From assembly GCA_051532055.1 (NCBI GenBank), contig JAOPTX010000003.1:71356-135355 (forward strand): a DNA stretch of 64,000 nucleotides. Direction: 5' to 3'. Below are positions 25,502 to 48,800 of the stretch, piece after piece. Source of the stretch: Fibrobacterales bacterium (GTDB lineage Bacteria; Fibrobacterota; Fibrobacteria; Fibrobacterales; JAOPTW01). Each line of letters starts with the position of its first letter. Position 1 is the stretch's first letter. The notes under the pieces were generated by a model that saw only the letters and a list, made by a program, of their open reading frames with translations, was not told the DNA's origin and did no database searches. The translations under genes and the position numbers were made by a program.

Positions 25502-31939
<6,438 letters not shown>

Positions 31940-32198
31940 AGGGAGGTCCTTTAAAGAGGTATTGAATAAAAAAGTATGGATTAGATAAGGAAATAAATAT
32001 ACTAAAGCAAAAGAGTGTTTGAATTGTGGGTAAGCATATATGCATATACCTGTTTATAAACTGATAATTTTATGTGGATTTTAAGATAGTTTGCCCCGTA
32101 AGTGCTTACTTGTGGTAAACGCTTGGAGTGGTGATCGCTATTTGTGTACTACGGTTATTTTAATGAACAAAGATAATAGAAGCATGTTACCGGTGTTT

Positions 32199-33689
32199 CT
32201 AAATACTATACCAACCAGAAACTAATGGTTTTTGGTTGGGTGTAGTATCCATAGTAACAGTCTTTTTGCGACTGTAAGATTTTAGACTATCCAGACCAAG
32301 TTCTTTTCCATATCCACTATTCTTAAAGCCACCAAAGGGAACTTCACTCGAAAATGCCCCATAGGTGTTCACCCAGACCGTTCCTACATTTAAGGCTCTT
32401 ATTGCGCGCTGTATATATGCTTGATTATTGGTCCATATTGAAGCGGCGAGGCCATACTCAGAACTATTAGCCAGTGTTATAGCGTTATTAATTGAATTAT
32501 AAGGCGCGGTAATCAGAACGGGCCCAAATACCTCTTCATTCCATATATCCATATCCGATGTTACGTTACTTAATATGGTAGGTGGGAAGAAAGCACCTTT
32601 TGTAGGTATTTCACTCAGTTGGAGTGGGGTTATTCTCACAGCACCTTGGCCAATAGCTTGAGCAACCATTTTTGATACTTTCTCTCTATGGGTTGTACTG
32701 ATGAGTGGCCCCATATCTGTTGTGGGTCGCTCTCCTGAGGCTATTACTAATGCAGAGGCTTTCTGTGCAAGAAGCTCGGTAAATTTTTTGTAGATAGATT
32801 CATGAATGAGAAGACGTGATCCTGCGACACACATCTGCCCTTGGTTCATAAAGATGGTTGTTAAAATGGTGCGAGCAGTGCTTTCTAAGTTACAATCTTC
32901 ACATACAATAGTGGGGGACTTCCCCCCAAGTTCAAGAGTAACGGGTGCAAGATTAATTGCGGTGCTCTCTACAATTGCTCGTCCTGTTTTGGTAGACCCC
33001 GTAAAGGATACTTTAGCGATACCCATATGACCAGTCAGTGTTGGACCGATCTCTTCGCCAATGCCGGTTACTACATTAAGTGCTCCTTTGGGCAGGACTG
33101 TATCACTTAGTTTTTCACACAACGTTAAAAGTGACGCTGAGGTGAGCTCTGATGGTTTCATCACGATAGTATTGCCCGCAGCAAGGGCAGGTGCAATTTT
33201 CCACGCGGCCATTAAGAGTGGATAGTTCCAGGGTACAATCTGTGCAACAACGCCAAGGGGTTCATACTGAGTGTACGTGAAGGTACTGCCGTCTGTAGGG
33301 AATGTCTCACCCTTAAGTGAGAGTACCAGTGATGCATAGGTTCTAAAAACCTTTGCCGCTTCGGGAATATCAATAAGTGATGACTCTTTGATGGGTTTGC
33401 CATTTTCCTGAGTCTCTATTTGCGAGAGTAACCCTGAGTGCTCTTCAATAACTTCAGCAATTTCCCGTAGGATGTCGGCTCTGTCGTGATACGAAAGTGA
33501 CTGCCACTCACCTGAGTAATAGCACTCTTTTGCAGCTGTTATTGCTTTATTGATATCCTCAGGGGTTCCTTGTTGAATAGTCCACAGCAGCGCACCAGTG
33601 GCAGGGTTAATAGAATCAATAGTGTTCTCTGTAGTGCCTGTGCACCACTCGCCACCAATAAAGTGGCCATACTCTTTAGACACGATCAA
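32199..33689 (-). CDS. NAD(P)-dependent aldehyde dehydrogenase
   Basis: PWNYP, KPSELT, FTGST, LELGGKSP, GQMCVAG, EEVFGP, FGGFKNSGYG. Confidence 0.95.
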   Translation of the reverse strand: MIVSKEYGHFIGGEWCTGTTENTIDSINPATGALLWTIQQGTPEDINKAITAAKECYYSGEWQSLSYHDRADILREIAEVIEEHSGLLSQIETQENGKPIKESSLIDIPEAAKVFRTYASLVLSLKGETFPTDGSTFTYTQYEPLGVVAQIVPWNYPLLMAAWKIAPALAAGNTIVMKPSELTSASLLTLCEKLSDTVLPKGALNVVTGIGEEIGPTLTGHMGIAKVSFTGSTKTGRAIVESTAINLAPVTLELGGKSPTIVCEDCNLESTARTILTTIFMNQGQMCVAGSRLLIHESIYKKFTELLAQKASALVIASGERPTTDMGPLISTTHREKVSKMVAQAIGQGAVRITPLQLSEIPTKGAFFPPTILSNVTSDMDIWNEEVFGPVLITAPYNSINNAITLANSSEYGLAASIWTNNQAYIQRAIRALNVGTVWVNTYGAFSSEVPFGGFKNSGYGKELGLDSLKSYSRKKTVTMDTTPNQKPLVSGWYSI

Positions 33690-34680
33690 GCTCCTTTACG
33701 GGAGCAGCTTTCCAGAGTTCAAAGATTCGATAGAAAGGAGCGTACCATTTTGAGAGATCGCCTATATGTCCTTTAATGAGTTTTAGTTTTTTCTGACTGG
33801 TTGCGGCAAAAGGATCGAGCCTTCCATTAAAAACATGAATCCAAATTTCTCGTTTACCCATGTTAATAAAATCGGCATCATCATCATTGGTGATTTTTGT
33901 AAGGACACCTTTATTGAAATGCATGTTGTAGATAGTCCCATCATCAGTGAGTTTAATCGCGTAGCGTGTGGTCAAGTCAGAAGCTTCTCCTAGTGAGAGT
34001 GCTTCAGGGTCATTATTAATGAGGGTCTGTAGTTTTTCAATGTGGGCATCAGTAAAGACCTCATAGCTCTCACTAGGTTTTTCAGGGGCTTCTTCTACTC
34101 GTTTTGTATTTTGGTGCCCAAGGAGGACTGAATTAAGGGTAATCTTGGCTGCTGATTCTGCAGTGTCAGCCAAAGAATATGCCTCAATGAGGGTTTCACC
34201 GGCTGCTACGAGACCATGTTTTTCAAGAAAAACTATGGAGCTCGTTTGAAATGCGTTAAGTAGTGCAGGGATGTCGGTCACCGTTGGACTTTTCTGTGCG
34301 AGCACTGGGGGCTTTCCTAAGATGAGTGATGACTCATAGGTGCTTGACTCAAGTTCTCTGTTGCAGTTTAATAGGGATAATAGTGTAGTGGGATGGAGAT
34401 GGACGACTGCCTTGTAGCTTTCAGTGTTATAGAGCGCAAGATGCATATCGCTTTCAGTAGAGGTTCGTTTGCTGTTTGGTTCAATTAATGAGCCGGTATT
34501 ATCGATAAGAAGTAGGTCATCTTCAGTTATAAAACCAAGTGATGTTTGATGTGCCGTTATTAGAATTTCATTCTCATTAAGGCGACAGGATATATTTCCA
34601 CCCCAACCTGAAGTGAGTCCTTTGGTAAAGGCCATTTTTCCGATCTCTATTATCTGTTCTATACAACGTTGTTTGCTCAT
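33676..34680 (-). CDS. Class II aldolase/adducin-family protein fused to a C-terminal SCP2-like domain
   Basis: GGNISCR, STESDMH, VHLHP, EKHG; C-terminal DADF...W..VFNGRLDPFAA..QKKLKL.KG. Confidence 0.82.
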   Translation of the reverse strand: MSKQRCIEQIIEIGKMAFTKGLTSGWGGNISCRLNENEILITAHQTSLGFITEDDLLLIDNTGSLIEPNSKRTSTESDMHLALYNTESYKAVVHLHPTTLLSLLNCNRELESSTYESSLILGKPPVLAQKSPTVTDIPALLNAFQTSSIVFLEKHGLVAAGETLIEAYSLADTAESAAKITLNSVLLGHQNTKRVEEAPEKPSESYEVFTDAHIEKLQTLINNDPEALSLGEASDLTTRYAIKLTDDGTIYNMHFNKGVLTKITNDDDADFINMGKREIWIHVFNGRLDPFAATSQKKLKLIKGHIGDLSKWYAPFYRIFELWKAAPVKELDRV

Positions 34681-35189
34681 TGGCTATTCTCTGAAATAAG
34701 TTGGCTGGTAAGGTTTGGTAACATAATGTCTTTTTCTGGAATAAGGTCGTACTTAAAGGCTATGGTTGTAACGTTTGTAGGTATTATGTCACAATCAAAA
34801 AAGGTTTGGTCAGGAATATTTGACGTATCAATAGGAATGGTATAGGCTGGGATATTTAACTGTTTTGAAAAGAGCAACCCAATGGCACTACCAGGAAGGG
34901 TATTCCATTCAGTATCGGTTTTTTTATGGCCCTGAATATACAGGGCACTTATCTCTCTGTTCTGAAAGAGTGACCCAATCATATTGTCAGTTATGAGAGT
35001 GAGTGAAATGTTATGTTCACCGTAGTTTTGTATTGCATCAGAAACATCCTTTTCAAAAGGGCGTGTTTCAGTCACATAGAGGGTTGAACAGTCAGCATGA
35101 TTGGAAAAGATGGTATCAAGTGTCTCTTCTGTAGGGATGCCAATAAGAAGTATATGCATAGTTGACCTTAAATAAGGAGTCGTATCCAA
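34677..35189 (-). CDS. Short MtnA/eIF2B-like protein (C-terminal domain only, catalytic residues absent)
   Basis: YVTETRPF, LTLITDN, LNIPAY, YDLIP align by eye with the neighbouring MtnA (YATETRPY, VTLIPDN, CGIPFF, FDMTP). Confidence 0.7.
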   Translation of the reverse strand: MDTTPYLRSTMHILLIGIPTEETLDTIFSNHADCSTLYVTETRPFEKDVSDAIQNYGEHNISLTLITDNMIGSLFQNREISALYIQGHKKTDTEWNTLPGSAIGLLFSKQLNIPAYTIPIDTSNIPDQTFFDCDIIPTNVTTIAFKYDLIPEKDIMLPNLTSQLISENSQ

Positions 35190-35212
35190 ATGAGGGTACG
35201 ACTCCTAAAGTG

Positions 35213-36712
35213 TTATTGTGCTGGGGTTGCTTCTGACGATGCTTCAGCTGGAGCAACCGCTGCTTCACCACTTGCTGCTTGAGCATAATCATCCATCGAA
35301 CGCATATAGCTTTGGAAGATTTTGAGAGGAAATGAGTTAATGGTTTCACTTTCTAGAATGCGTTGTACACGCCCTCTAGCCGAGTAAAATTCACGGTTTG
35401 CCCATGCGGCAATTTGTCCGAGCTCTTCTCTTTTTAAGTGTTTGGTTCGTACCACTGGCTCATGGAAATTCCAACGATCGAAGTCCGTGATTTCACAAAA
35501 CTCCTTTACTTCTTCGTACATAGGGATTCCCGGTACAGGGAGAAGCATTTGTAGTGCCATGATATCTGGATCGATATCGTCGAGAACTGCAAAACGTTTT
35601 TTTAAACTCCGCGCACTGTCATCAGGGAAGCCAATGATCCATGTGATTACTGAAGTAATATTCATTTCACGAAGTGCTTCAGTGACCTCTTTTATTTCAG
35701 CGACTGTTGTACCTTTTTTCACTTTCTTTAACTCTGCATCATCGGTTACTTCTAATCCATATATCACTGCACCGAGGCCGCATTTTTGAAGCTCGGGGAG
35801 TAAATCAAGGTCACGTTTGAGTGAATGGGCATTACCGAGGAAATTAAAGTTTACGGGAAGCTTACGTTCTTGAAGTTCTGTAAGGAATGCTTCAGTACGT
35901 TTACGCGATGGGTTAAAGTTAAGATCAAAAATACTGATATTATCAACACCATAATTAACGTAAAGATGCTCCATTTCATCAACAACTCGTTTTGCTGATT
36001 TGTAGCGATGTTTCATCCAGTCATTATTTCCCCGTGGATCCATAGTAACCCAGTCGATACAAAAGCTGCAGCCAAATGGGCAGCCACGCGAAGTAAAAAT
36101 CTCTTGGTAAGTATCGATCTGATCATACCCGATATATTTATCCATAGGGAAGAGTTCATAGGCTGGCATTGGTAACGAGTCGAGGTCTTTAATGAGTGGT
36201 CTATACTCATTGACGATGAGCTCATCTAAATCAGATCGGTGACAAAGCCCTTTAATGGTAGAGAGGTCGCCATCATCTGTTGCAAGTGTTGCTACAAGTT
36301 CGGTAACGGTGAGGTCTGGTTCGCCAGCAATGACATAGTCATACTGTGGCGTTTCATTGGCGATATCTTTATAGTTAGCTGCGATGTAGAAACCACCAGC
36401 GCAGATGCTCACTTCAGGGAACATTTCTTTAATCATTACTGCTGCACGTTCATAGTGAGGAATAATTGAGAGCGTCTGTGTCATTTGATACGCATCACCA
36501 AGATATATGAGGTCGGGTTGACGTGTATCAATTTCTTGAAGCATTTGCTCGTGTTGAAAGTCCTCCGCTCTACAGTCGAGTGCTTCAACGGTTACATCTT
36601 TTACATCGCGCTGTATGCATGCTGCTATTTGTGCATGACTTACGTTGATTGCAATGTGCTTTCCCCATGTGACCCATGATCCCATGGGAGGTTGTAAAAA
36701 TAGTACTTTCAT
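35213..36712 (-). CDS. Cobalamin (B12)-binding radical SAM enzyme
   Basis: Start MKVLFLQPP at 36712 with GAGGA RBS; B12-domain motifs GG, DYVIAGE, DLDSLPMP; SRGCPFGCSFC; YGLE, IIGFP, PVPGIP. Confidence 0.9.
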   Translation of the reverse strand: MKVLFLQPPMGSWVTWGKHIAINVSHAQIAACIQRDVKDVTVEALDCRAEDFQHEQMLQEIDTRQPDLIYLGDAYQMTQTLSIIPHYERAAVMIKEMFPEVSICAGGFYIAANYKDIANETPQYDYVIAGEPDLTVTELVATLATDDGDLSTIKGLCHRSDLDELIVNEYRPLIKDLDSLPMPAYELFPMDKYIGYDQIDTYQEIFTSRGCPFGCSFCIDWVTMDPRGNNDWMKHRYKSAKRVVDEMEHLYVNYGVDNISIFDLNFNPSRKRTEAFLTELQERKLPVNFNFLGNAHSLKRDLDLLPELQKCGLGAVIYGLEVTDDAELKKVKKGTTVAEIKEVTEALREMNITSVITWIIGFPDDSARSLKKRFAVLDDIDPDIMALQMLLPVPGIPMYEEVKEFCEITDFDRWNFHEPVVRTKHLKREELGQIAAWANREFYSARGRVQRILESETINSFPLKIFQSYMRSMDDYAQAASGEAAVAPAEASSEATPAQ

Positions 36713-36725
36713 TGTGTCCTCTTGG

Positions 36726-37721
36726 TTATTTACTCCAGGCTTCTGGTAATTCAGAAGGCGATAGAGCAGCATTAAATGTTATTAGTTTTGTTATAAGGGT
36801 GTGTGGAGTCATATCAAATGCAGGGTAATAGGCATCAGTATGCTCTGGATATATTTTTCTATCTTTAAAGGTTGTTACCTCACGACTATCACGGTGTTCA
36901 ATAGGAACTTCTTCACCTGTTTCCGTAGAACCAGGATCTTGCACTAATGAAAAGAAGGGAATACCGCACTCTTTTGCGATTGTTGCAATTTGAAAGGTAC
37001 CCGTTTTATTGACCACATCACCATTAAGCGCGACTCTATCGGCTCCGGTAATGACTTTAGTAATGGTTCCTGATATAATAATCGAAGCGGTTCTATTATC
37101 TGGTATGAGCGTTACTGAAAATCCTTCTTTCTGTAATTCCCATGCGGTCAACCGTCCTTGAAAGTAAGGGCGGGTCTCAGTTGCATAAAATGAGAGTGAC
37201 TTACCTTGTGCTTTGCAAAGCTGTGCAATGAGCAGTAATTCACCACTTGTATTACAGTGAGTTAATACAATATCACCATCATCAAATAGTTCAGTCGCAA
37301 GCTTTGCTCGGTGGAGGCGCATCTGTTTGATGCGCTCTAAAAATCCTAAGACTTTAGTCTCTGCAAACTCTTTTGTGTCTTTCTCATTTTGAGTAATACC
37401 TTCATAAACCCACTGCTTAACCATAGCCGTGTATGTTTTAAAGCTAAATGTTGGCCTGCTCTTATTGAGTGCTTCAACAGCATCGGCTATTGTTACTTCA
37501 AGAACATCTTCTTCAGTATTTCTTATGGTTATGATAAGAGCATAAAATACGGTGAGAAGTTGTCCAAATGCGCGGGTCTTCATGTCTCGTATAACGGTCA
37601 CCGCTTCTGAATAATCAGAAACGGTGATGTAGGTTATCGCTTCAGGAAGCGCAGTCTCATCAAGTACTTCAAACGTCTTATGCTGTAGTCGCGCCGACCA
37701 ACCCAGAAGTGGAAATTCCAT
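36726..37721 (-). CDS. mtnA: S-methyl-5-thioribose-1-phosphate isomerase-family (MtnA/DrdI-like) aldose-ketose isomerase
   Basis: LDETALP, SRPT, LTHCN, ETRPYFQGRLTAWEL, GADRVALNGDVVNKTGT, PIEHR, PAFDMTP; ATG at 37721. Confidence 0.85.
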   Translation of the reverse strand: MEFPLLGWSARLQHKTFEVLDETALPEAITYITVSDYSEAVTVIRDMKTRAFGQLLTVFYALIITIRNTEEDVLEVTIADAVEALNKSRPTFSFKTYTAMVKQWVYEGITQNEKDTKEFAETKVLGFLERIKQMRLHRAKLATELFDDGDIVLTHCNTSGELLLIAQLCKAQGKSLSFYATETRPYFQGRLTAWELQKEGFSVTLIPDNRTASIIISGTITKVITGADRVALNGDVVNKTGTFQIATIAKECGIPFFSLVQDPGSTETGEEVPIEHRDSREVTTFKDRKIYPEHTDAYYPAFDMTPHTLITKLITFNAALSPSELPEAWSK

Positions 37722-38469
37722 GGGCACCTTTAGACTCTAAAATGTTAATGGCTTCGAATGCGATATCAATAGTTTTAGATTCAGCTTCAAAAAATTTGAG
37801 ACTGCCAAAACCTAGTTCACCTGTGATAAGGTTATCACTTACTGCGAGTACTGCACCTGCTTTAAGACCTTTGACTTGTGCAACGGTAAGAAGTGCTGAC
37901 GTTACCATATCGACACCGATACATTTAAGGTCGCACATCTCTGCGATAAGCTCTTTGGTTTCTCTCAGAAGTGCATCGGTACTCCAAGTAAGACCCACAT
38001 GGTAGGTGACCCCAAGGTTTTCACAGGCCTCTACGAGTGCTGAAGTAGTCATGAGGTCAACTACTGTGGAGAAGTTGGCAGGAACATAGTAGGGTGAAGT
38101 ACCTTCACCACGAATCGCACCATTGGCAATGATGATATCACCAACAGCAATATCTTCACGCATTGCGCCACATGACCCTGTTCTGATTACTGTTTCTGTG
38201 CCACCGGCTGCAAGAATTTCTGTGGTGATTGCTGCGGGAGGAGCATACATGCCACTATTTGCAGTGCTCACCAACAGCTCACCAATCTCACCAGTGTGCA
38301 TCTCAACACCTGCAAAAGAGAAGTCTCTCACTGGGTCTGTTAATTTTGCTTTTACTGCATCAAGTCTATCAATGGGTCCTGGTACTACAGCGTACTTACC
38401 CAGCGATCCTGGTTGAAGTTGAACCATTTTTAAAAGGTCTTGTGCGTCCATGTGAACATTCTTACTCAT
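37678..38469 (-). CDS. Nucleoside phosphorylase (PNP/UDP family 1, uridine phosphorylase-like)
   Basis: VPGPIDR, IRTGSCG, AIRGEGTSPYY, STDALLRE, VDMVTSA, VSDN. Confidence 0.85.
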   Translation of the reverse strand: MSKNVHMDAQDLLKMVQLQPGSLGKYAVVPGPIDRLDAVKAKLTDPVRDFSFAGVEMHTGEIGELLVSTANSGMYAPPAAITTEILAAGGTETVIRTGSCGAMREDIAVGDIIIANGAIRGEGTSPYYVPANFSTVVDLMTTSALVEACENLGVTYHVGLTWSTDALLRETKELIAEMCDLKCIGVDMVTSALLTVAQVKGLKAGAVLAVSDNLITGELGFGSLKFFEAESKTIDIAFEAINILESKGAHGISTSGLVGATTA

Positions 38470-38699
38470 CTGTCCCTCTTGATTAATGTGGAATTGTTGT
38501 TTTCAATTATATATTTACAAACTTGTATTTACCCTAAAAGAGTACTAGTGAAATGTGAAGTAGTTTTAACATTTGATCCTGAATTGTTTCTCTAGCTTAT
38601 ATAAAACAGTCCTTAACGCTCAATTCCAGAATGAAATTGAAGCGGTATTCAGTATGATACTCAGTGCTTTTTATTTTTAAGAAGCAGTGGTGTGAAGAG

Positions 38700-38963
38700 T
38701 TACTGCGCTGACTTTTTTTCTGACTCTATATAATCATTCATGATCGTCAGCATTCCACCAAGAGTTGTAATTGATGAAACTGAAGAGAGCGGTACATTGA
38801 TTTTAAACGTTGTTTGTAGTCGTACCCCAAGAGTCATGATGCCGAGTGAGTCAATACCGATATCTTCATAGATATTGGTTTCTTCACTAATTTCATCAGA
38901 CTCCATACCAAGGTGATCACATATTACGGGTGAAAAATCTTTCCAAGAAATAGTACTCATCAT
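38700..38963 (-). CDS. Acyl/aryl carrier protein
   Basis: 87 aa acidic protein with phosphopantetheine motif DIGIDSL. Confidence 0.9.
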   Translation of the reverse strand: MMSTISWKDFSPVICDHLGMESDEISEETNIYEDIGIDSLGIMTLGVRLQTTFKINVPLSSVSSITTLGGMLTIMNDYIESEKKSAQ

Positions 38964-40546
38964 TACTCCTGTGTTACGCTCATCATGCGGGTTAACTCTT
39001 CTTTTGATTGATCGATCAGTTGTTGAAAATTCACTTTTCCTACACCTGGATTTTTGGGTATTTCATCAATAAAGATGATATTGTCGGGCACCATATACGG
39101 AGCGAGGTTTTCTCTACACACTCTCATGATAGCTCCTGTTTTTAATTCAGCCTGTGGGTCTTTAACGACATACGCCCATACCATTTCACCATAGAGTTCA
39201 TGGGGCACACCAACGACCGCTGTACTGAGTACTTCAGGTAAGGTTTCAATCATCTCTTTGATCACTACTGGGGAGACACTTTTGCCTCCACGTTTAATGA
39301 GGTATTTATTTCTACCGAGTAGGGCGATAGTGTTGTCGCCAATCATTTTCGCATGATCACCAGTCTTGAACCATCCATCACAAAAAGCGGTTTTGTTCTC
39401 ATCAATGTTGCCGAGATATTGTTTGATAACCCCTTTTCCTTTAATCCAGAGTTCACCTTCAATGCCATCTTCTACACTTGTACCATCAGCATTAAAAATG
39501 CCGATTTCATTTCCAGTACCATTTACCAAAGTAAGTTCATTAGTGGTATTAATAAAGTCAGCTTCACTCTTCGCTTTCCAAACCATGATGACTGTTGCAG
39601 TTTCAATGAGACCATAGCCAATGCCAACATGGTTGAGGTTTGTAAATTTCTCTTTAATTCTATTGAGGAGTTTATTGGGGAAGAAGTCCATGCCTGTATA
39701 AAGACCTTGTACTGTTGAAAGGTCAAATTGACCAAGCATAGGGAGTCCAAGGATTGCCTCATAATAGGCTGGTGGCGCTGCAATTGAGTCGGCCTTCCAT
39801 TTTTGAACCTGTTGAAGATAGGTGACCGGAGACATATCTGACGTTGAGATTTGTTTAACTCCTGCCATCATCATACCACTCAGTACCAATATCCCCGAAG
39901 TAGAGAGGGGGAAGGCGAGCATGCATGAGTAGTGATTGCCTTGTGGCATAGCCATTTCAAAAGACGATTTAAGGACCGATGCGCCACTGCCTTGTGACAT
40001 CATAACCATTTTAGGTTTGCCTGTCGTTCCAGAACTGGTTGCCATCATAAAAGGATGGTTTTCATCGGTACCTTTAAAAAGGTGCTCTTTTATAACAAGA
40101 GCACTGACTGCTTCGTCAGTATCACTTTTAAATGAACTTACTGGAACTACGGTAAATGGTGCTTGCAACTGTTGTGCTGTTTCGGTGAACGTTTCACACT
40201 CTTTATCTGAGGTTACGACATGACCAACGCGACAACCGAGATAGATGCCTACGCGTGCTTGTGCAGGAATCATGTTAAAGAGGGGGACCGCTATAGCTCC
40301 AAGTCGCGATATGGAGAGTAATAGGTAAAAGGTCTCAGCACAGTTGGGGAGGGTATACCCCACACCAGCACCTGGTTTAATACCAAGAGCAATGAGTTTT
40401 TTTGTGTAGCAATCAACATTTGTTTTAAGAGTATCAAGAGTGATAATCTCATCGTTTATGATCAGAAGTTCTGTACTCCCTTCTTTGGTGTACAATATGT
40501 TTTCTATTATGTCATTAAAGGTATTACATGAGAATATGTCACTCAT
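38963..40546 (-). CDS. Class I adenylate-forming enzyme (acyl-AMP/CoA/ACP ligase) 2
   Basis: TSSGTTGKPK, GYGLIE, WFKTGD, GRNKYLIKRGG, IPKNPGVGKV. Confidence 0.9.
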   Translation of the reverse strand: MSDIFSCNTFNDIIENILYTKEGSTELLIINDEIITLDTLKTNVDCYTKKLIALGIKPGAGVGYTLPNCAETFYLLLSISRLGAIAVPLFNMIPAQARVGIYLGCRVGHVVTSDKECETFTETAQQLQAPFTVVPVSSFKSDTDEAVSALVIKEHLFKGTDENHPFMMATSSGTTGKPKMVMMSQGSGASVLKSSFEMAMPQGNHYSCMLAFPLSTSGILVLSGMMMAGVKQISTSDMSPVTYLQQVQKWKADSIAAPPAYYEAILGLPMLGQFDLSTVQGLYTGMDFFPNKLLNRIKEKFTNLNHVGIGYGLIETATVIMVWKAKSEADFINTTNELTLVNGTGNEIGIFNADGTSVEDGIEGELWIKGKGVIKQYLGNIDENKTAFCDGWFKTGDHAKMIGDNTIALLGRNKYLIKRGGKSVSPVVIKEMIETLPEVLSTAVVGVPHELYGEMVWAYVVKDPQAELKTGAIMRVCRENLAPYMVPDNIIFIDEIPKNPGVGKVNFQQLIDQSKEELTRMMSVTQE

Positions 40547-42105
40547 ACGGTCTCCTTGTGTTCTCGTATTGATTTATATTGAATTTTTCCAATTTCTTTG
40601 GGGAGTTCAAGGGTAATAAGGAACTCATCCGGGATTTTGTAGCTTGAAAGATTACCACTGCAGTATCGGCGGAGTTTACCGCCATTTAACACGCACCCCG
40701 ATCTTGGTTGTACGTGGGCTTTTATCATTTCACCCAACAAGTCATGGGGTTCAACGGTTATTGCTACGGCAACAATATCATTGTGGGTTAATAGAAATGC
40801 CTCAATATCTTCGGGGAATATGAGGTTTGCACCTCTTTTGAGAACTCGTTTTTTACGTCCCAAGAATGCAACGCGGCCCGTTTCATCGTACTGACCTAAA
40901 TCACCTGTTCGAAACCAACGCATTGAATCATTTTCGTAAAGAGCTCTTTCAGTTTCTGCACTATTATTATGGTAGTTGTGTAAGATACCATCTGTATGAA
41001 TATGGATCATACCAATTTCGCCATGGGGGACGATTTTGTCGTTGTCGTCACAGAGTTTCACTTGAGTAAAAGGGGGTGTGCGATAGACGTTACAATCGAC
41101 GGCACTATCAACGTCGGAATCCCACACAAGCATAGTAGCGGTCTCTGTAGAACCAATAATGTTAACCACACGAATACCGAAGTCATCGACAAAACGGTGT
41201 GCGATTTTATTGGGGAGCACTTCTCCCGCAAAATAACAGAGGCGGAGACTCGAGATATCATAGCTCTCAAAATCGGGAACCGAAAGAAGTATTTTGGCAA
41301 GCGTACTGCTTAGTTGGAGAACCGTTACTCGGTTCTCTTGAATAGTTTTAAGCATGGTTACTGGGTCAAAGGAGCCCAAGTAGATTACTGATCCACCCAT
41401 CAAACTATTCTGAAGGCCCATACCAAAGCCACCGAGGTGAAAGAGAGGCATCCCCATGAGCATCACATCAATTGGGTTTAAATCGAGGTAGCGGGCCATA
41501 TCTGTCTGAGATGTATAAAAACCCTCTTTTGAAACCGTGATAATTTTGGGGTTACTTGTTGAACCAGAAGTACTTGCGAGCATTAAGGTATCACTGTGTA
41601 CCTGATTTGTGGTTATTGAAAGAGTTGTTTCGTTACTCAATATATCACTATACCAAAGAACCTTGTCGTTTTCTGGTAGTGTAATGTCGGCGTCTAAGAA
41701 CACCAATGTTTTAATATCAGTAAAGGTATCTGAGAGGGCTGTGAGGTTCGCAAGGTGATTGATGTTTCGAAACTTCACGCACGCTATAGCCAATTTGATA
41801 GAGAGTGTTTTTAAAAGCCCTTCGAGTTCCCACTTTCCAATTTGAGGATTGAGCGGCACGGGAAGTGCTTCTAATGTAATAAGAGCCCAGTAGGTTGTAT
41901 ACCACTCAATGCAGTTGGGGAGTATCAGCATGACTTGGTCGCCCGCTCCAACTCCTTGACGAGACAATGCCTCTGCAACACTCTGTATTTCGGAGTTCAG
42001 CTCTGCACGAGTGTGAGATCGACCGTCAACAGTAATAGCATCTCCTTGAGGATTTTCTGTACTGAGGGAATCTATCCATACATGAAAAGGGTTTGGGATA
42101 TTCAC
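40543..42105 (-). CDS. Class I adenylate-forming enzyme (acyl-AMP/CoA/ACP ligase) 1
   Basis: STSGSTSNPK, PLFHLGG, GSTE, WFRTGDLG, GRKKRVLKRGA, LPKEIGKI. Confidence 0.9.
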   Translation of the reverse strand: MNIPNPFHVWIDSLSTENPQGDAITVDGRSHTRAELNSEIQSVAEALSRQGVGAGDQVMLILPNCIEWYTTYWALITLEALPVPLNPQIGKWELEGLLKTLSIKLAIACVKFRNINHLANLTALSDTFTDIKTLVFLDADITLPENDKVLWYSDILSNETTLSITTNQVHSDTLMLASTSGSTSNPKIITVSKEGFYTSQTDMARYLDLNPIDVMLMGMPLFHLGGFGMGLQNSLMGGSVIYLGSFDPVTMLKTIQENRVTVLQLSSTLAKILLSVPDFESYDISSLRLCYFAGEVLPNKIAHRFVDDFGIRVVNIIGSTETATMLVWDSDVDSAVDCNVYRTPPFTQVKLCDDNDKIVPHGEIGMIHIHTDGILHNYHNNSAETERALYENDSMRWFRTGDLGQYDETGRVAFLGRKKRVLKRGANLIFPEDIEAFLLTHNDIVAVAITVEPHDLLGEMIKAHVQPRSGCVLNGGKLRRYCSGNLSSYKIPDEFLITLELPKEIGKIQYKSIREHKETV

Positions 42106-43265
42106 TCTGCTATTACTCCTTCAGCTACAGTCGATGTGATTGCTTGAGTTGCGATCCAATCTGCAAAGACATGTTTAATCCAGTGGAGTTGTTCGCCTAC
42201 AGGCATTGTGTGAGTTACCTGAATACCTTGATAGTAGACGGGTTCATCTTCAAGTATAAGAAGTTCTTTTGGACCGGTTGCTTTTTCATGGAGTTCGAGT
42301 GCATTGTCGATAGTCATCCAGTTGTCGTGTCTGCCATGAATGAGAAAATAAGGGCAGGCAACCTTTTCTTCACTGCCGAGTCCCATTTCAGCAACGAAAG
42401 TCTTTGCATCTACGCCACCTGTCTGAAAGTTGTAAGCAGGTCCTTGACGCATCCATGCAGGCGTTACACTTTCGTCGACTTGATCAATATAGAGGGGGAA
42501 GAGTGTTGCACACCATGCGAAGCGCTTATCGAGGCTTGCTGCTTTATACGCATAACCACCTCCCATACAGAGCCCTGATACGCCAATTCTTTCTGAATCG
42601 ATCATATCTAATGCACACGCATAGTCCATGGTGCTTTTAAATGTCTCTAGGATAGATACCATACGGCACTTAATGTCGCGATCAAAGAGTGCTTCTCCAC
42701 AACCAGGCATGTCAGGTACGAGCACTGCAATACCTCTTTTTAAGAGGGGCATTGCGAGAATATGCATCTCTTCTTTACAGCTACCGAGGCCTTCAAAGAG
42801 GATTGTGCAAGGAAAGGGACCTTCACCTTCAGGAAAATGGAGATATGCAGGGACAGAAGTCTCGCCAATAGATATATCAACCTTCTTTGATTCTGTCGTT
42901 AGGAAGGTGAGTGCTTTGTCATAATACCGTGCATACTGAAGATAGACATTCTTCTTATCTTCGATTTTAACAAAGTTAATAAGGAACACCGCATAGTAAC
43001 ACTGGGCCGTTTGAAGGTACATGTCATAGGCGGTAATGGTATCGCCACGAGTTTCAGCATTCTGTGCTATATTCAGATATCGCTCTGCTTTTGTCTCCCA
43101 TAGAGCGAGCCATTTTTTCTGTAATACATTGGAGTTGATGATGTTTGTGTTCTCTACCTCTTTGAGGATCGCTTCTATGTCGAATGGATTGGTACCATAT
43201 ATTAACATACGCGTAATAACAGGGGCTAAAAAGGTGCGGATACTCCATTCTACAGGTGCGGTCAT
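42102..43265 (-). CDS. Alpha/beta hydrolase (FrsA/DHPON-hydrolase-like) with Cys at the nucleophile elbow
   Basis: PAYLHFP, GLGSCKEE, DMPGCGE, RIGVSGLCMGGGYA, IHGRHD, THT; start at TAATG overlap 43265. Confidence 0.85.
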   Translation of the reverse strand: MTAPVEWSIRTFLAPVITRMLIYGTNPFDIEAILKEVENTNIINSNVLQKKWLALWETKAERYLNIAQNAETRGDTITAYDMYLQTAQCYYAVFLINFVKIEDKKNVYLQYARYYDKALTFLTTESKKVDISIGETSVPAYLHFPEGEGPFPCTILFEGLGSCKEEMHILAMPLLKRGIAVLVPDMPGCGEALFDRDIKCRMVSILETFKSTMDYACALDMIDSERIGVSGLCMGGGYAYKAASLDKRFAWCATLFPLYIDQVDESVTPAWMRQGPAYNFQTGGVDAKTFVAEMGLGSEEKVACPYFLIHGRHDNWMTIDNALELHEKATGPKELLILEDEPVYYQGIQVTHTMPVGEQLHWIKHVFADWIATQAITSTVAEGVIAE

Positions 43266-44362
43266 TAACGTCTCCTTTGGGGAATTGTACAATGCATTAC
43301 TGCAAGTAAGGGGGTAGACTTGTAGGCAATTGAGGTGTAGCTATCGGCTTCATGTGTAACACAGTTACATTCAAGTGCATCTGTTTCGGATTGTACCTGA
43401 TTTACTGAACACTCTTGTATAGTAAATCCACTCTCTATTAAGCGGTCGAGCCATTGTTGGGCAGTGTTGTGCCCTTCGCGGATATACTCAGTTTTATTTC
43501 CAATAATGTCGATGATTTCAAAAACAAAGATTTCCTTAATTGACAAGCGTACGGACTCAGTAAGATGTTTGAGGGTGTCGATATAGTCAAAAATTCCTTT
43601 GAAATGGGTGTAACAGTTCTTTATACGTTCAGGGTAAGGTATGGTGATATGATCGACATCGGGTTCGGCAATATAGAGCGATGCAGGGTTTAGAACGTTC
43701 ATGTGGGTAGTCATTTGCTCACGAATAATGGTGTCATTACTACAGTGATGGAGTGAGAGGAGCGCAGTGATAATAAGCGGTCCCGTAATACTTTCTTGAA
43801 TTTCATCCCACTCTTTGGCGTTAAGTTTATCAATTGAACTATTAAAGCTGAGGAGTGAAAGAGTGATGGTACACTGAGTGCAGAGATCTTGTAGAGATCG
43901 CTGCCCGAGACCCAAAAGCTGTTTCGATGGTTCACAAGCAATTATGGTGACTGAATGAAGCTTAGGATTATGAATATACAGTGCTGATATGATTTCTCGG
44001 AGCAATCCTCCAGTCTTAAAGCCTGTATCAAAAAGGGTTATTTCTTCTTCTTCACCATAGAGTGTGAGTATCGAATCTATGAGAGATTGTTTTACGAGTG
44101 AGAGGATAGGGAAGTGTTCTAGGAAGAGTGCAACGCACTGTGCTGTTGAGTAGGGGGATAAGTGAAGGTTTTGTTGGTCTTCTTTAGTAATTGGTTTGTT
44201 ATAGTGTAGTTTAATTGCGTAAGAAAAACATCGAGCGAGAATAGCATCATTAGAATTGTAGGATTGGAGGTCCTCACTTTGTAGAGAGAGGCTCAATGCA
44301 TCAGTATCGATAGGGGGCTCTGTCAACGTAAGGGTTTCTATGAGTTGCTTTATTGGGCTCAT
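43265..44362 (-). CDS. Bacterial GRAS-domain protein (Rossmann methyltransferase-like fold)
   Basis: ITLFDTGFKTG (VHIID-equivalent), VTIIACEP, LSLHH, LNPASLYIAEPDVDH, RIKNCYTHF..IFDYID, EIIDIIG, REGH....WLDRLIESGF. Confidence 0.75.
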   Translation of the reverse strand: MSPIKQLIETLTLTEPPIDTDALSLSLQSEDLQSYNSNDAILARCFSYAIKLHYNKPITKEDQQNLHLSPYSTAQCVALFLEHFPILSLVKQSLIDSILTLYGEEEEITLFDTGFKTGGLLREIISALYIHNPKLHSVTIIACEPSKQLLGLGQRSLQDLCTQCTITLSLLSFNSSIDKLNAKEWDEIQESITGPLIITALLSLHHCSNDTIIREQMTTHMNVLNPASLYIAEPDVDHITIPYPERIKNCYTHFKGIFDYIDTLKHLTESVRLSIKEIFVFEIIDIIGNKTEYIREGHNTAQQWLDRLIESGFTIQECSVNQVQSETDALECNCVTHEADSYTSIAYKSTPLLAVMHCTIPQRRR

Positions 44363-45600
44363 GGGGTGACTACCCCTGCAGTACATCGCTCTACGATCAT
44401 GGGCAGTTGTGTTAAAGCGTTTGAAACTGTCTCATCAGAGACACAGGTCGAGAGACGAATATATCGTTCAAATCGACTTCCGCCAAATACTGAACCCGGC
44501 ATATACACAAGTGCTGGGTTGCTACTAAAGGCGGCCTCTCGAAAGAGTGCCTCACTCTCAATAGCTTCAGGAAGCTTTGCCCATATATAGAAGGTCCCTT
44601 TGGGTGGAACTACGGTGAAACCGAGCTCTTGCAAGGTTACCGTAAGGGCATCAGTGTATTCGTTATAAAAATAGCAGCTGGTGTCATCCAGTAACCCGAT
44701 TTGAGAGATTACCTTTTGTTGTATTACCGAGGGGTGTACAACTCTACTTCTTATTCTGAGCCGTAGGGCTTCAAGGAGGGTAGAGCACTCAAGGTCACCT
44801 TCATAATGAGGGTTAACGGCAATATATCCAATCCGTTCTCCCGGGATTCTGAGTGATTTTGAGAATGAATCGACTCGTATTGTTTCACTCCAGAGGAGCA
44901 TCATTGAAGGAACCGTTACCGCTGATGGGATAACTCTATCATAGACAGCATCCTCAATGATACTTATTGAGGTACCAGTAGTGAGCTCCATCTCTTTAAG
45001 GAGTTGTGCTAAGTTTTCTAATGAGCTCTCGGAATAAATTGCACCTGTAGGATTGTTGGGAGAATTCAAGAGAATCGCTACACAATCTGCGGTCAATGCA
45101 TTTCGAATGCTGGTACTATTTAAGGAACAGTCATCATTAGTGCTGACTCGTATGACCGTTGCCCCTGCTTGTTCGATGATAGTATCATATTCGACAAAGT
45201 GAGGGGTCAGTACAATCACTTCTGGGGTCGTTTCTCTTTTGGTAGCTCGTTTATTGTCTACAATGGTACTGATGACTGCATCCAATGCGCCTGTAGCGCC
45301 GACAGTCATGATTACTTGTTCTTGAGTAAAGGGTATGGAAAACCGTTTTTGTAAATCCAGAGAGATTCTATCGCTCGCATCACCACTTCCAAAACCTGTT
45401 TGATACAGAAAGCTATTGTGATCAGTCTCGATCATTTGCTTTGTTGTCGCAAGCAATACCTCTCGATAGTATTGTGGTGGTTTTTCTGCGGGGTTTCCGA
45501 GAGATAGGTCAATTACCTTTCCTGGTGCGTTTTTCACCTGAGAAAAAAGGTCGTAAATTGTCTGGTTATTTTTAACCTGATCAAGTGCGCTTTTTATCAT
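44359..45600 (-). CDS. PLP-dependent aminotransferase class I/II
   Basis: DLSLGNP, GATGAL, LNSPNNPTG, EDAVYD, SFSKSLRIPGERIGY, PGSVFG, YIRLS; ATG at 45600 with AAGGA RBS. Confidence 0.9.
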   Translation of the reverse strand: MIKSALDQVKNNQTIYDLFSQVKNAPGKVIDLSLGNPAEKPPQYYREVLLATTKQMIETDHNSFLYQTGFGSGDASDRISLDLQKRFSIPFTQEQVIMTVGATGALDAVISTIVDNKRATKRETTPEVIVLTPHFVEYDTIIEQAGATVIRVSTNDDCSLNSTSIRNALTADCVAILLNSPNNPTGAIYSESSLENLAQLLKEMELTTGTSISIIEDAVYDRVIPSAVTVPSMMLLWSETIRVDSFSKSLRIPGERIGYIAVNPHYEGDLECSTLLEALRLRIRSRVVHPSVIQQKVISQIGLLDDTSCYFYNEYTDALTVTLQELGFTVVPPKGTFYIWAKLPEAIESEALFREAAFSSNPALVYMPGSVFGGSRFERYIRLSTCVSDETVSNALTQLPMIVERCTAGVVTP

Positions 45601-45862
45601 GTCCCAATTCCTTAAAGCTAACAAAAAGATAGTACAGGTTTGTAATTTGGGACTTATTTGTCATGATATTGGTGTAATGTATGTGTCTTATTTACAGTGC
45701 TACCTCAAATATTTCTTTTGATTAGTGATAACTATTTTGTGCTGATTAGTAAATGCAAGGGTTTCATAAGTTGACATGGCTTCATTTGTGATTTCAGTTC
45801 GTGCTGCACTGCGATTCGAGGGTTGATAAATTAATTGAAATGCGCTTGATATCCTTAATTAT

Positions 45863-48800
45863 TTGGGCATTATGTGCAATGTATCTGTTATAATTATGTC
45901 TAGGCCTTTTAAAATATTTGACTACCATTCTATGTTGCAAACCACTCTATCTTCAGGACTTATAAAAATGATTGCACTGCTGCTATTAATTGCTGGTGTA
46001 TCAGTGAGTAATGCCAATTTCCGTGTGTTATATGTCAGTGCCTATCATCCTGGTTTTTCAACCTTTGATGATCAGGTCCAAGGTATTAAGGAGGGTTTAG
46101 GCGACCTGAACGTTTCCCTTGATGTTGAATTTATGGATACTAAACGATTACCGTATACTGCAAATACGGACCTTTTTAGAGAGTATTTAGGGTACAAGCT
46201 TTCGGTTGTATCTCCATATGATCTTATTATAGTGGGTGATGATAATGCTCTCACTTTTGCACTTACAGAAATCGACGGATTATTTGCATATAAACCGATT
46301 GTATTTCTTGGCGTTAATAATGTAACTCAAGCAAGAAAAATGGATGGTCAGCCAAGGATTACTGGAGTAATTGAAGCGGTATCTATACAGGGAACTATAG
46401 AAGTAATGCAAAGGATGATTCCAGAGGCTGATACTATTGTTGCCCTCGTTGATAACATGCCCAGTGGTCAGGGAGATCTTGTAACGTATTATAATCAGGC
46501 AGCTGCATTTAAAGATGTAACCTTTACTGATATTAACCTTTCGGATTATACCTGGTCGGATTATCAAGAAATTTTAAAGAATGATACTCAGGGTAAAATG
46601 TATTTATTACTCTCAGCATATAAAGACAGCACTGGGATGAGCGTACAGTTTGATGAGGGTGTTAAACGTATTACCCAATCATTGAATGCCCCACTCTTTC
46701 ATTTATGGAAGCATGGCATAGGCTCTGGTTTGATTGGAGGAAAAGTAGTTGATCATTATTATCAAGGAAAATCTGCTGGGAGCATCGCTGCATCTATTCT
46801 TGAAGGAAAGGATGTAAATACTATTCCAGTGAGTGTAGAAAGTCCCAATGCTTATTGGTTTGATTATACAATACTCTCCAAATATTCTATTGCTATCAAT
46901 AGCGTGCCGAGTGGCGCTATAATTATAAATAAACCGAGTACTTTTTATACTCAAAATAAGGGATTAATTAAAACCGTTATTGGAGTAATAGGGTTTCTGT
47001 TTCTTTCTCTCATTATTGCATTAGTAAATATAAAGAAGCGGAAATCAGTAGAGGAAAAACTTCGAGAAAGTGATCAAAAGCACCAATCACTGATTGCCGG
47101 TATTGCAGATGTTATTGTTGTTATTAATACCGATAATATAATTATTTATCAGAGCCCCAATGTTGAGCGCTTGTTAGGGTGGACTTCTGAAGATGTTTCT
47201 GGTACTGATGCCAATATCTATATCCATAAAGATGATGCTGAACGCCTCGCTCCTTATTTTGAAAAGATTATACATAATCCCAACAAAATATTTCAGGCTG
47301 AGTTTCGGCTCATTTGTAAAGATGGGAGTGAAAAATATGTGGCATCGAATGCAATAAATATGTTAGCAGATCCGCTCATAGGGGGGATTTTATTTAGTTA
47401 TCATGACATTACTGATAAAAGACAAGCTGATGAAGAACGACTAGCGTTACAACACTATTTCAGTAGTGTTATTAATGTTATGCCTTCATGGATAATTGGG
47501 TTAACAGCAGAAGGAATTATAACTCATTGGAATGCTATAGTGGCCGATGCATCAGGATTATCATCAGAGGCGGCAGTGGGGAATAACCTTTTTGAACTTA
47601 TTCCTGAGTTTAATATAATATATAAAAATGTAACCACCAGCCTTGCGATTGATGAAAGCCAAACGATGTATAATATTGATTTGGGATATAGCGCGGCCCC
47701 TGTACATTGCGACCTTACAATTTATCCTGTCACAATAAGGGAGGGCAATGAAGTAGTACTTCGGATTGATGATGTTTCAGAAAAACATCACCTCGAAGAT
47801 CAGTTGAGGCATACGGTTAAAATGGATGCCATAGGCCAATTATCTGGAGGCGTAGCCCATGATTTTAATAATATGCTTGGGGGAATTATTGGCGCGGCTC
47901 AGTTACTGAAGAAACCAAAATTTAATTTAACTACCGATGCTATGAAATATGTGGATCTTCTCCTCTCTGCTGCGAATCGAGCAGCCGATCTTACAGCAAA
48001 GCTTCTCGCCTTTGGAAGAACAGGGCCACTTGTTAAAGAATCGATATCTGTAGATGCATTGATTGAAGATACGCTCGTAATGATCAATGCATCGTTATTA
48101 GATAAGAATATTAACGTTCAATATAAGAGAATCTTTAAATACTGTACTATAACAGGCGAAGATTCAGCGTTACAGAATGCACTACTCAATCTTTCATTGA
48201 ATGGAATACAAGCAATGAAAGATGGCGGTGCTCTTACGATTACCCTATCAAATATCCTACTGAATAGCTCTAACAATAAGGTTAACGGAATTGCATTAGT
48301 ACCCGGTGATTATGTTTGTATTTCGGTTAGTGATACTGGAATGGGTATAGACACAAAAGATTTTACCCGCATCTTTGAACCTTTTTTCACTACGAAAGGC
48401 AAAGGAGAGGGGACAGGTTTGGGGCTTGCAGCAGTATATGGGACCGTCCTCGATCATGGTGGTGCGATTGATGTTCAGAGCAGTATTGGAGTAGGCACTA
48501 CCTTTAGTATCTATATACCCCTTATGAAAGATGCAGTACAGGAATCTCATGCTATTGAAAACGTTGCAGCGGGGAGTGGTTTGATACTCGTAGCTGATGA
48601 TGAGGAAGTGCTACGGGTAACGATAACCGACATGCTGGAAGATCTGGAGTATTCTGTTATTACGGCTACGAATGGACAGGAAGCAGTTGAGTTGTTTGAA
48701 AAACATCAAAATGATATATCAGTAGTATTACTTGATATGATTATGCCAATAATGAAGGGTAGTGAAGCCTTTTATGCTATTAAAAATATCAAAAGTTCTG

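Follow-up and report, generated by a model that had tools for sequence, protein, structure and literature searches.

To our knowledge, the ribose of S-adenosylmethionine (SAM) serves as product carbon only in the pathways to fluoroacetate, chloroethylmalonyl-CoA, futalosine, and adenosylhopane. In the first two, which belong to Streptomyces cattleya and to salinosporamide formation, respectively, phosphorolysis and trimming of a 5'-substituted 5'-deoxyadenosine made from SAM turn C4' and C5' of the ribose, together with the substituent (X), into the building block. Both routes begin with a SAM halide adenosyltransferase (a fluorinase or a chlorinase), and in the fluoro route isomerase, aldolase, and aldehyde dehydrogenase (ALDH) reactions then lead to an acid of the form X-CH2-COOH. 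In the formation of adenosylhopane (HpnH, HpnG) and futalosine (MqnE, MqnB), a radical SAM enzyme adds a 5'-deoxyadenosyl radical to a skeleton, a PNP_UDP_1-family enzyme removes the base, and the ribose carbons are retained in the product; neither HpnH nor MqnE is a B12-domain enzyme. Here we describe a six-gene cassette from a Fibrobacterales bacterium, located in a 64,000-nucleotide stretch (the window) of contig JAOPTX010000003.1. It encodes a nucleoside phosphorylase, a sugar-phosphate isomerase related to MtnA, a B12-domain radical SAM enzyme, a half-sized MtnA paralogue (half-MtnA), an SCP2-fused class II aldolase, and an ALDH.

The cassette apparently has three steps and three superfamilies in common with the dihydroxyacetone phosphate (DHAP) shunt for disposal of 5-deoxyribose (MtnP or MtnN plus MtnK/DrdK, MtnA/DrdI, and Ald2/DrdA). 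According to PMC6079011, which also mentions the fluoro route of S. cattleya, the shunt first removes the base to leave a sugar 1-phosphate, then isomerises this aldose to a ketose, and finally splits the product into DHAP and an aldehyde by a class II aldol reaction. The cassette departs from it in that its phosphorylase is of the hexameric uridine/DeoD type rather than MtnP; its MtnA is divergent, with a shortened active-site loop and an apparently dead half-size partner; its aldolase bears an SCP2 domain; an ALDH, an adenylating ligase, and an embedded B12 radical SAM gene are added; and its host possesses a separate canonical MtnA. Judged by curated model scores, the cassette enzymes are not members of the MtnP, MtnA, or Ald2 equivalogs. 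Unlike the fluorinase and chlorinase routes, the cassette has a B12 radical SAM enzyme as its candidate first enzyme and apparently a lipophilic substituent, and unlike the adenosylhopane and futalosine pathways, which have neither an MtnA-type isomerase nor an aldolase, it has predicted members of both. By analogy, the module might work as a phosphorylase variant of the DHAP shunt that is extended in the manner of the fluoroacetate route. We propose that a widespread nucleoside-to-acyl module, biosynthetic in nature and acting on a hydrophobic 5'-substituted adenosine, is represented in Fibrobacterales by these six genes, and we assign this reading a probability of roughly 45%.

No description of the cassette was found in the full-text literature, supplements aside, and the names carried by the radical SAM and fused-aldolase homologues are all generic, in agreement with an initial annotation made from the sequence alone, which did not recognise the operon as characterised. 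The available passages of PMC12324291 list MtnA among hopanoid-correlated domains and say nothing more on the cassette, and those of the 2026 review PMC12931638 do not describe such a neighbourhood for any characterised class B radical SAM enzyme. Fusions of SCP2 to a class II aldolase were likewise not found in the published literature; UbiJ and other SCP2 domains, which shelter hydrophobic intermediates of pathways, resemble that of the cassette aldolase in being attached to, or working with, soluble enzymes. New here are the acyl carrier protein (ACP) and ligase context in Fibrobacterales, the MtnA/half-MtnA pairing with its natural fusions, the variant devoid of radical SAM enzyme and ALDH, and the exclusion of a hopanoid connection.

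Layout and predicted enzymes of the cassette

In the open reading frame (ORF) listing of the window, the six genes are arranged in tandem on the minus strand across 32199-38469, with overlaps of 4-50 nt or a 23-nt gap between them; this listing and the Pfam matches (Table 1) bear out the tight packing and the gene identities of the initial annotation. The MtnA gene probably starts at the ATG at 37721, and the radical SAM gene probably at Met21 of its ORF (36712), because its homologues of ~486 residues cover 93-94% of that ORF in alignments. Past 38469, after a 230-nt gap, the same-strand cluster extends upstream to 45624 and comprises 12 genes in all. Across 31800-46000, promoter-like sites (25 versus 31.4 expected) and terminator-like sites (15 versus 10.5 expected) are uninformative on operon structure. 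In one marine metatranscriptome run, identical contigs cover parts of six of the 12 cluster genes (ALDH, radical SAM, MtnA, phosphorylase, ACP, and aminotransferase/GRAS-like genes), and one contig bridges the MtnA/phosphorylase junction; this is a weak hint of expression, as such libraries may contain DNA and their contigs cannot prove transcripts, and the uncovered parts carry no meaning.

The phosphorylase lies under the cut-off of every curated NCBIfam model. The best is uridine phosphorylase (130.5 bits versus a cut-off of 280.3), with the DeoD-type purine nucleoside phosphorylase (PNP) also among the best; the HpnG model gives 34.5 bits (cut-off 187.1), that of the methylthioadenosine/S-adenosylhomocysteine (MTA/SAH) nucleosidase gives 43.1 (cut-off 169), and no MtnP model is among the NCBIfam matches listed. 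Alignments to the Protein Data Bank (PDB) place uridine phosphorylases, a Thermus PNP, and a Sulfolobus MTA phosphorylase as the nearest solved relatives. Across 25 aligned orthologue rows, the conserved motifs are IRxGSCGAL, WxTDALLRET, DMV, and VSDNxITGE; the stretch that aligns to GQxR of uridine phosphorylases is missing, and D-M-V replaces the E-M-E of the solved enzymes. The Asp of VSDN, which we take to match the SDH motif that makes DeoD specific for purines, suggests that the base removed is a purine. Phosphorylase function as such is plausible.

The cassette MtnA passes the NCBIfam cut-off of the eIF-2B_rel subfamily (189.4 versus 185.85 bits) and misses that of the MtnA equivalog (202.1 versus 279 bits). 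The residues aligned to HCN and GADR of solved MtnA are retained, and C158 and D230, presumably the catalytic Cys/Asp pair, are invariant in 22 sequences; TRAFGQ takes the place of the canonical RGAPAIG, and about 7 residues are missing from the loop that follows the Cys. Half-MtnA corresponds to the C-terminal domain of MtnA, of which it is a standalone paralogue; it lacks the Cys and GADR motifs, and its only invariant positions in the alignment are E41, R43, P44, D68, N69, and M70 (E-x-R-P and D-N-M-x-G). On this pattern we consider it catalytically dead and predict that it is a pseudo-dimer partner of MtnA. The modelled complex scores 0.88, as opposed to 0.00 for the best of three controls, and this mark is reached by 116 of 157 solved complexes and by 2 of 215 mismatched pairs. 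At least 91% of the contacts agree between runs, the partner has a predicted local distance difference test score (pLDDT) of at least 77, and the model seats half-MtnA on the C-domain of MtnA via the E-x-R-P and D-N-M-x-G motifs of both partners. Natural fusions lend support to the pairing: 5 of 150 listed half-MtnA relatives are 467-511 residues long, i.e., the length of an MtnA::half-MtnA fusion; one such protein, P0121, consists by BLASTP of an MtnA (45% identical to that of the window) followed by half-MtnA; and two of the loci described below (L099 and L100) encode fusions of this kind. As a standalone protein of the right size, half-MtnA is matched by ~120 clusters at 50% identity among the listed matches.

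In the aldolase domain, E76, H94, H96, and H155 are invariant in the alignment, and all NCBIfam matches are under their cut-offs. The AlphaFold (AF2) model of the fused protein has a pLDDT of 90.2; it matches FucA with a Z-score of 24.4, and the 5-deoxyribose aldolase DrdA ranks fourth in a Foldseek search. The SCP2 domain scores just under the Pfam cut-off in the window protein (20.6 versus 21.3 bits) and is matched (PF02036) in 21 of 22 members of the fused-aldolase family, with a best E of 2.7e-7. Residues 206-327 of the model superpose on the SCP2 of Thermus thermophilus (2cx7_B) with a Z of 17.0 and a root mean square deviation of 2.0 Å over 120 residues, and the domain further resembles a palmitate-bound mosquito SCP2 and UbiJ-SCP2 (Z 7.0). 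The SCP2 fold is firm on the evidence of the model, and lipid binding is putative. The family is a sizeable one, with at least 166 clusters at 90% identity matching the fused aldolase at E <= 1e-40. The best NCBIfam models for the ALDH are the betaine-, aminobutyr-, and phenylacet-aldehyde dehydrogenases, all under cut-off. With the aligned motifs of MtnA, aldolase, and phosphorylase retained, the cassette enzymes look competent.

The radical SAM enzyme has the domain order of the class B members BchE, HpnJ, TokK, CysS, and OxsB, with a predicted N-terminal B12-type Rossmann domain and then the CX3CX2C core, whose cysteines (C211, C215, and C218) are conserved without exception in an alignment of 18 sequences. 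Its best curated NCBIfam score is to the BchE model TIGR02026 (220 bits versus a cut-off of 481.35), followed by HpnJ and then P- and C-methylases, with every curated family cut-off missed; the nearest solved relatives are AprD4, TokK, CysS, and OxsB. The B12-binding domain (PF02310) scores 28.2 bits in the window protein, under the Pfam cut-off of 32.1, and is precomputed in 113 of 120 listed homologues. The enzyme may bind cobalamin, a property that we regard as putative; relatives such as AprD4, according to PMC12931638, have the domain and do not bind the cofactor. No radical SAM fusion of 875-2495 residues was found at E <= 1e-60, which is weak evidence only.

Recurrence, variants, and distribution

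Loci around 79 radical SAM homologues, on contigs of one genome per species, were searched by tblastn with 12 window proteins, and phosphorylase, MtnA, and aldolase-SCP2 were taken as the core genes. At least two of these are present at 24 of the 79 loci; 3 have a single core gene at a contig end, 31 have none and a short flank, and 21 have none with at least 8 kb covered on both sides. The initial annotation had held that its proposal would fall if the homologues usually lacked these neighbours, which is not what is seen: the 45 informative loci divide into 24 with at least two core genes and 21 with none. The hosts of the cassette are Thermodesulfobacteriota and "delta proteobacterium" metagenome-assembled genomes (MAGs), Omnitrophota (some labelled Planctomycetes), Ca. 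Desulfofervidaceae, and a Fibrobacterales relative. Gene orders vary among them, for example ligase, phosphorylase, MtnA, half-MtnA, aldolase, ALDH, radical SAM; radical SAM, phosphorylase, MtnA, half-MtnA, aldolase, ALDH; and ligase, MMPL, MtnA, half-MtnA, radical SAM, phosphorylase, aldolase. Such shuffling across phyla is to be expected of selection for co-location rather than of shared descent of one operon, and an arrangement that recurs, rearranged, at these 24 loci in several phyla is more than chance.

A quick maximum-likelihood tree built from 77 radical SAM sequences shows three subclades with the cassette, interleaved with cassette-free ones. The clade of the window's enzyme has 24 rows, comprising 16 with the cassette, 6 on cut contigs, and 2 that are second copies in cassette genomes. 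Further, in four of five genomes with nominally cassette-free homologues the full-length fused aldolase is encoded elsewhere, and the complete genome of Ca. Velamenicoccus archaeovorus has the full set ~11 kb upstream of its second radical SAM gene. Of the 24 cassette loci, 18 have an ALDH gene and 16 a ligase gene.

A variant module is found in a Syntrophobacteraceae MAG (L099, 5548-11627) and a Binatia MAG (L100, 7611-13925). It consists of a MarR regulator, a CCG/4Fe-4S protein (TfrB/GlpC-like), phosphorylase, MtnA::half-MtnA, aldolase-SCP2, and ligase, and it is conceivable that the iron-sulphur protein replaces the radical SAM enzyme or the ALDH, which these loci lack. The constant core, as these variants delimit it, therefore consists of phosphorylase, MtnA, half-MtnA, and aldolase-SCP2.

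Several companion genes are suggestive of lipid-type processes. Genes for an MMPL-type resistance-nodulation-division (RND) transporter, LolA-like/DUF1329 proteins, and DUF1302 proteins lie in or beside the cassette at six loci (L003, L005, L014, L015, L017, and L050). In Omnitrophota, the companions are a PadR regulator, a PanE/ApbA-like reductase, two FabF-like ketosynthases after the cassette, a cyclase-family protein, a major facilitator superfamily (MFS) transporter, a short-chain dehydrogenase/reductase (SDR), an amidohydrolase, and a second radical SAM paralogue. At L040/L078 (one and the same contig) and L041/L092, this paralogue is ~10-11 kb from the cassette and flanked by Amidohydro_2 and HypF-C-like proteins; the ketosynthases, cyclase, MFS transporter, and SDR lie in between, so that the whole looks like one supercluster. 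A radical SAM homologue is also seen in a different lipid-type operon (L075, 5533-16225), together with MMPL, LolA-like, flavin mononucleotide (FMN) reductase, aldehyde:ferredoxin oxidoreductase, ApbA-like reductase, TIGR04076, and ketosynthase genes; the fused aldolase of that genome is on a separate small contig (L084).

Within Fibrobacterota, the fused aldolase is found in 2 of 201 genomes searched, namely that of the window and one of the same genus, a third match being a plain aldolase of 207 residues. Outside the genus, the closest radical SAM relative in the quick tree is from a Desulfococcus MAG. This patchy distribution suggests that the cassette was acquired laterally. The guanine-plus-cytosine fraction is 0.41-0.43 over 32000-46000, 0.37 in the preceding 30-32 kb bin, and 0.32-0.40 over much of the window, a contrast compatible with an origin in another lineage. 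Archaea were not counted as hosts: a 2-kb contig of a Methanomethylovorans MAG (L028) carries a radical SAM gene and a cut phosphorylase gene, and a fused aldolase was found neither in the remainder of that genome nor in any of 201 genomes of its order. A further radical SAM homologue (P0050) is named after Methanoperedenaceae.

The host genome, which is 94% complete, encodes a separate canonical MtnA (395.8 bits versus the cut-off of 279), a futalosine hydrolase, and an inosine/guanosine-type PNP; no MTA/SAH nucleosidase was found above cut-off. The canonical MtnA gene adjoins a divergent Aldolase_II-family gene of 231 codons (G000, C23:7076-8747; loci L082 and L103), and the pair is possibly the organism's own route for MTA and 5'-deoxyadenosine. 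The cassette is single-copy, and its MtnA is an extra, divergent paralogue in a rare and probably acquired cluster; together these features argue against a plain housekeeping role. This argument does not weigh against clean-up dedicated to the cassette's own radical SAM enzyme.

Proposed route and its alternatives

In the first step of the route that we envisage, the phosphorylase would take the purine base off a 5'-substituted 5'-deoxyadenosine to give a sugar 1-phosphate, which the MtnA/half-MtnA heterodimer would convert to the ketose 1-phosphate. The class II aldolase would then cleave this to DHAP and X-CH2-CHO, with the fused SCP2 domain holding the hydrophobic tail X, and the ALDH would oxidise the aldehyde to X-CH2-COOH. 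Finally, an adenylating ligase would activate the acid on the way to a lipid-like or polyketide-like product. In the window this role would fall to LigA with the ACP, together with the second ligase (LigB), the hydrolase, the GRAS-like protein, and the aminotransferase of the upstream half of the cluster. The B12 radical SAM enzyme would be the source of the unusual nucleoside. It is the most likely one because no other enzyme encoded nearby acts on the adenosyl part of SAM, and it is the sole candidate maker because no PF01887 protein and no HpnH above cut-off was found in the 94%-complete genome; that it makes the nucleoside is pure conjecture on our part.

We infer both the direction of flux and the hydrophobic nature of X. 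The latter is pointed to by the SCP2 domain, the FadD-like ligases with their conserved Gly, the lipid-type transport genes, and the ketosynthases, and the SCP2, ligase, transport, and ketosynthase context also suggests that the resulting acid serves as a building block. Both window ligases resemble the PRK06187 long-chain-fatty-acid--CoA ligase model of NCBIfam, the ligase of another cassette (L048) scores 463 bits on a long-chain-fatty-acid--CoA ligase model, and in tblastn of the fetched loci the single ligase of other cassettes scores higher against LigA than against LigB. In 20 of 20 aligned ligases, a Gly stands two positions ahead of the TE/SE/IE motif, at what we take to be the site of the pocket-closing Trp of acetyl-CoA synthetase. 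The case for the non-standard, possibly lipophilic substrate favoured in the initial annotation is strengthened by these features of fold and neighbourhood, and its non-standard character also by the dead MtnA paralogue as partner and the separate housekeeping MtnA. In a more specific form of the proposal, the B12-domain enzyme would perform radical C-adenosylation, joining C5' of SAM to an unactivated carbon or alkene of a lipid; the net outcome would be a carboxymethyl extension (lipid-CH2-COOH), with the acid re-activated into an envelope lipid or acyl natural product of uncultured anaerobes. We consider this particular chemistry unlikely.

Several observations weigh against a biosynthetic nucleoside-to-acyl module of this kind. 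As noted, 21 of the 79 radical SAM loci are cassette-free within at least 8 kb on either side, and one genome (G210) has two radical SAM homologues and no fused aldolase. Among the 24 cassette loci, 6 lack ALDH and 8 lack the ligase. In the L099/L100 variant, neither a radical SAM gene nor an ALDH gene lies within 5-7 kb, and therefore the nucleoside may be a common one. Of the relatives that are solved or named, the radical SAM enzyme is closest to methylases, AprD4, OxsB, and BchE, and an adenosyl-transfer reaction is not described for class B in the passages of PMC12931638 available to us; its part as maker is weakened by this want of precedent in those passages as well as by the variant. 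Other members of the aldolase fold, i.e., dehydratases, epimerases, and decarboxylases, score nearly as high as aldolases (Z 21.1 for APIP/MtnB), and at the level of the model the domain is indistinguishable from a dehydratase, epimerase, or decarboxylase. The score of the MtnA/half-MtnA complex may reflect likeness alone, because MtnA and eIF2B dimers have been solved. As to the initial interpretation as a whole, the gene identities and the uncharacterised status stand, its hopanoid analogy falls, its idea of a net carboxymethylation stays conjectural, and the existence of the module without an adjacent radical SAM gene or ALDH counts against it.

The main alternative is recycling, in which the B12 radical SAM enzyme would be a methylase of class B or some other radical enzyme that acts on a lipid or polyketide of the cluster and sheds 5'-deoxyadenosine at each turnover. 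The other enzymes would convert this to adenine, DHAP, acetaldehyde, and then acetate, from which the ligase may make an acetyl thioester primer for chain synthesis. Every step of the module is also what the path from 5'-deoxyadenosine to acetate needs, and DrdA is a top structural match of the aldolase domain, both of which likewise tell against the main reading. All the required enzyme types are present and look active, and no canonical MTA/SAH nucleosidase above cut-off was found in the genome. A phosphorylase variant of the 5-deoxyribose/DHAP shunt is established (PMC6079011), and most characterised enzymes related to the radical SAM enzyme, by model scores, solved structures, and PMC12931638, are methylases. 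Yet recycling leaves unexplained why SCP2 is retained in nearly all of the fused aldolases (21/22), why MtnA has a dead partner, why the ligases are FadD-like with a Gly at the presumed gate of the acetate pocket, and why the module exists without an adjacent radical SAM gene. The genome, moreover, already holds a canonical MtnA beside an aldolase-family gene. Radical SAM enzymes are known from essentially all bacteria, but the cassette is in just 2 of the 201 Fibrobacterota genomes. On balance we rate recycling as a tentative possibility, with the odds against it.

Alternatively, the radical SAM enzyme might C-methylate C5' of 5'-deoxyadenosine or of its sugar phosphate, either once or repeatedly, so that propionate, isobutyrate, or pivalate would be loaded by the ligase as a small branched starter for ketosynthases or ACP. 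Class B enzymes typically methylate unactivated sp3 carbons, some of them iteratively, according to PMC12931638, and TokK and CysS are among the relatives of the cassette enzyme. Ketosynthase pairs follow the Omnitrophota cassettes, and the ligases are not of the acetate type if their motif is read correctly. However, a substituent of one to three carbons would hardly call for an SCP2 domain, or for MMPL and LolA-like genes in the operon, the Pfam scan of the window proteins shows no ketosynthase, and propionate and isobutyrate would be cheap to obtain from primary metabolism; such a starter is improbable. A catabolic role, with the MMPL, LolA-like, and DUF1302 proteins importing a hydrophobic compound or lipophilic nucleoside that the module turns into acyl-CoA for beta-oxidation, would suit the transport genes embedded in the operon, the FadD-like ligase directly after the aldolase in some variants, and the MarR or PadR regulators upstream, but is highly improbable given the presence of the cassette in very small genomes (1.4-2.0 Mb; G209 and G005), the biosynthetic look of a window context with ACP, two ligases, and aminotransferase, and the very high outlay of SAM that activating a growth substrate would incur.

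Two further candidates were rejected. The analogy to HpnH and HpnG drawn in the initial annotation implied hopanoids, and no squalene-hopene cyclase (PF13243) was found in the host genome or in five other cassette genomes (0/6 in all), nor any HpnH above cut-off in the host genome (best 48.9 bits versus 225). A halogenase-type start is rejected because no PF01887 (SAM halide/hydroxide adenosyltransferase) match was found in the 94%-complete host genome, the control having matched in 8 of 14 named genomes.

Remainder of the cluster, surroundings, and implications

In the upstream half of the cluster (Table 1), the hydrolase, GRAS-like, and aminotransferase genes are common only to the window and a close relative, a Fibrobacterales MAG locus (L001) that is 95% identical and has all 12 genes in unchanged order. 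Diverging from the aminotransferase end of the cluster is a gene for a hybrid sensor kinase/response regulator, a possible regulator. Directly downstream of the ALDH gene is that of a 2145-residue protein with four Flg_new_2 stretches, probably an unrelated surface protein. Farther away, a protein of 1147 residues that combines a VWA domain with several ricin-type lectin repeats has a weak, sub-threshold CDtoxinA match, which most likely reflects merely the common lectin fold. The C termini of four large proteins consist of the Fib_succ_major domain, a hallmark of Fibrobacter; together with the L001 match, these domains fit an assignment to Fibrobacterales within Fibrobacterota.

Table 1. Coordinates of the cassette, the rest of its cluster, and other features of the window
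Feature	Coordinates	Strand	Supporting match or remark
Nucleoside phosphorylase, hexameric NP-I type, 263 aa	37678-38469	-	Pfam PNP_UDP_1, E 2.9e-33
Divergent MtnA-type (eIF-2B-related) sugar-1-phosphate isomerase	36726-37727	-	Pfam IF-2B, E 2.1e-53
BchE-like B12-domain radical SAM enzyme	35213-36712 (ORF open to 36772)	-	Pfam Radical_SAM, E 1.4e-15
Half-MtnA, 170 aa	34677-35189	-	Weak Pfam IF-2B match, 21.9 bits versus cut-off 22.4
Class II (FucA/DrdA-like) aldolase fused to SCP2	33676-34680	-	Pfam Aldolase_II, E 8.2e-32
NAD(P)-dependent, non-acylating ALDH	32199-33689	-	Pfam Aldedh, E 9.7e-164
ACP, DSL serine motif	38700-38963	-	Pfam PP-binding, E 1.4e-10
LigB, adenylate-forming ligase	38963-40546	-	Pfam AMP-binding and AMP-binding_C
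LigA, adenylate-forming ligase	40543-42105	-	Pfam AMP-binding and AMP-binding_C
FrsA-like alpha/beta hydrolase	42102-43292	-	Pfam
GRAS-like Rossmann protein	43265-44386	-	Pfam GRAS PF03514, E 1.7e-16; no NCBIfam match
Class I/II aminotransferase	44359-45624	-	Pfam
Hybrid sensor kinase/response regulator	45863-48937	+	N-terminal ABC_sub_bind periplasmic and PAS domains
2145-aa protein	25502-31939	-	Four Flg_new_2 (InlB B-repeat-like) stretches
1147-aa protein	8812-12255	+	VWA domain and ricin-type lectin repeats
Four large proteins	1697-4366, 5915-8734, 12361-13968, 22298-23923		C-terminal Fib_succ_major domain

If the six genes do act as a biosynthetic nucleoside-to-acyl module, the cassette would represent a widespread version of the logic by which SAM ribose is built into a product, in anaerobes that have hardly been studied, such as Omnitrophota, Desulfofervidaceae including Ca. 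Desulfofervidus auxilii, a partner of anaerobic methanotrophic archaea (ANME), other Thermodesulfobacteriota, and Binatia. It could reveal a new reaction of B12-domain radical SAM enzymes along with a new class of lipid or polyketide, and it could explain an odd enzyme design, in which an isomerase is paired with a dead half-copy of itself. Should recycling into a chain starter be true instead, the cassette would constitute a new link by which the waste of a radical SAM enzyme is returned to biosynthesis.

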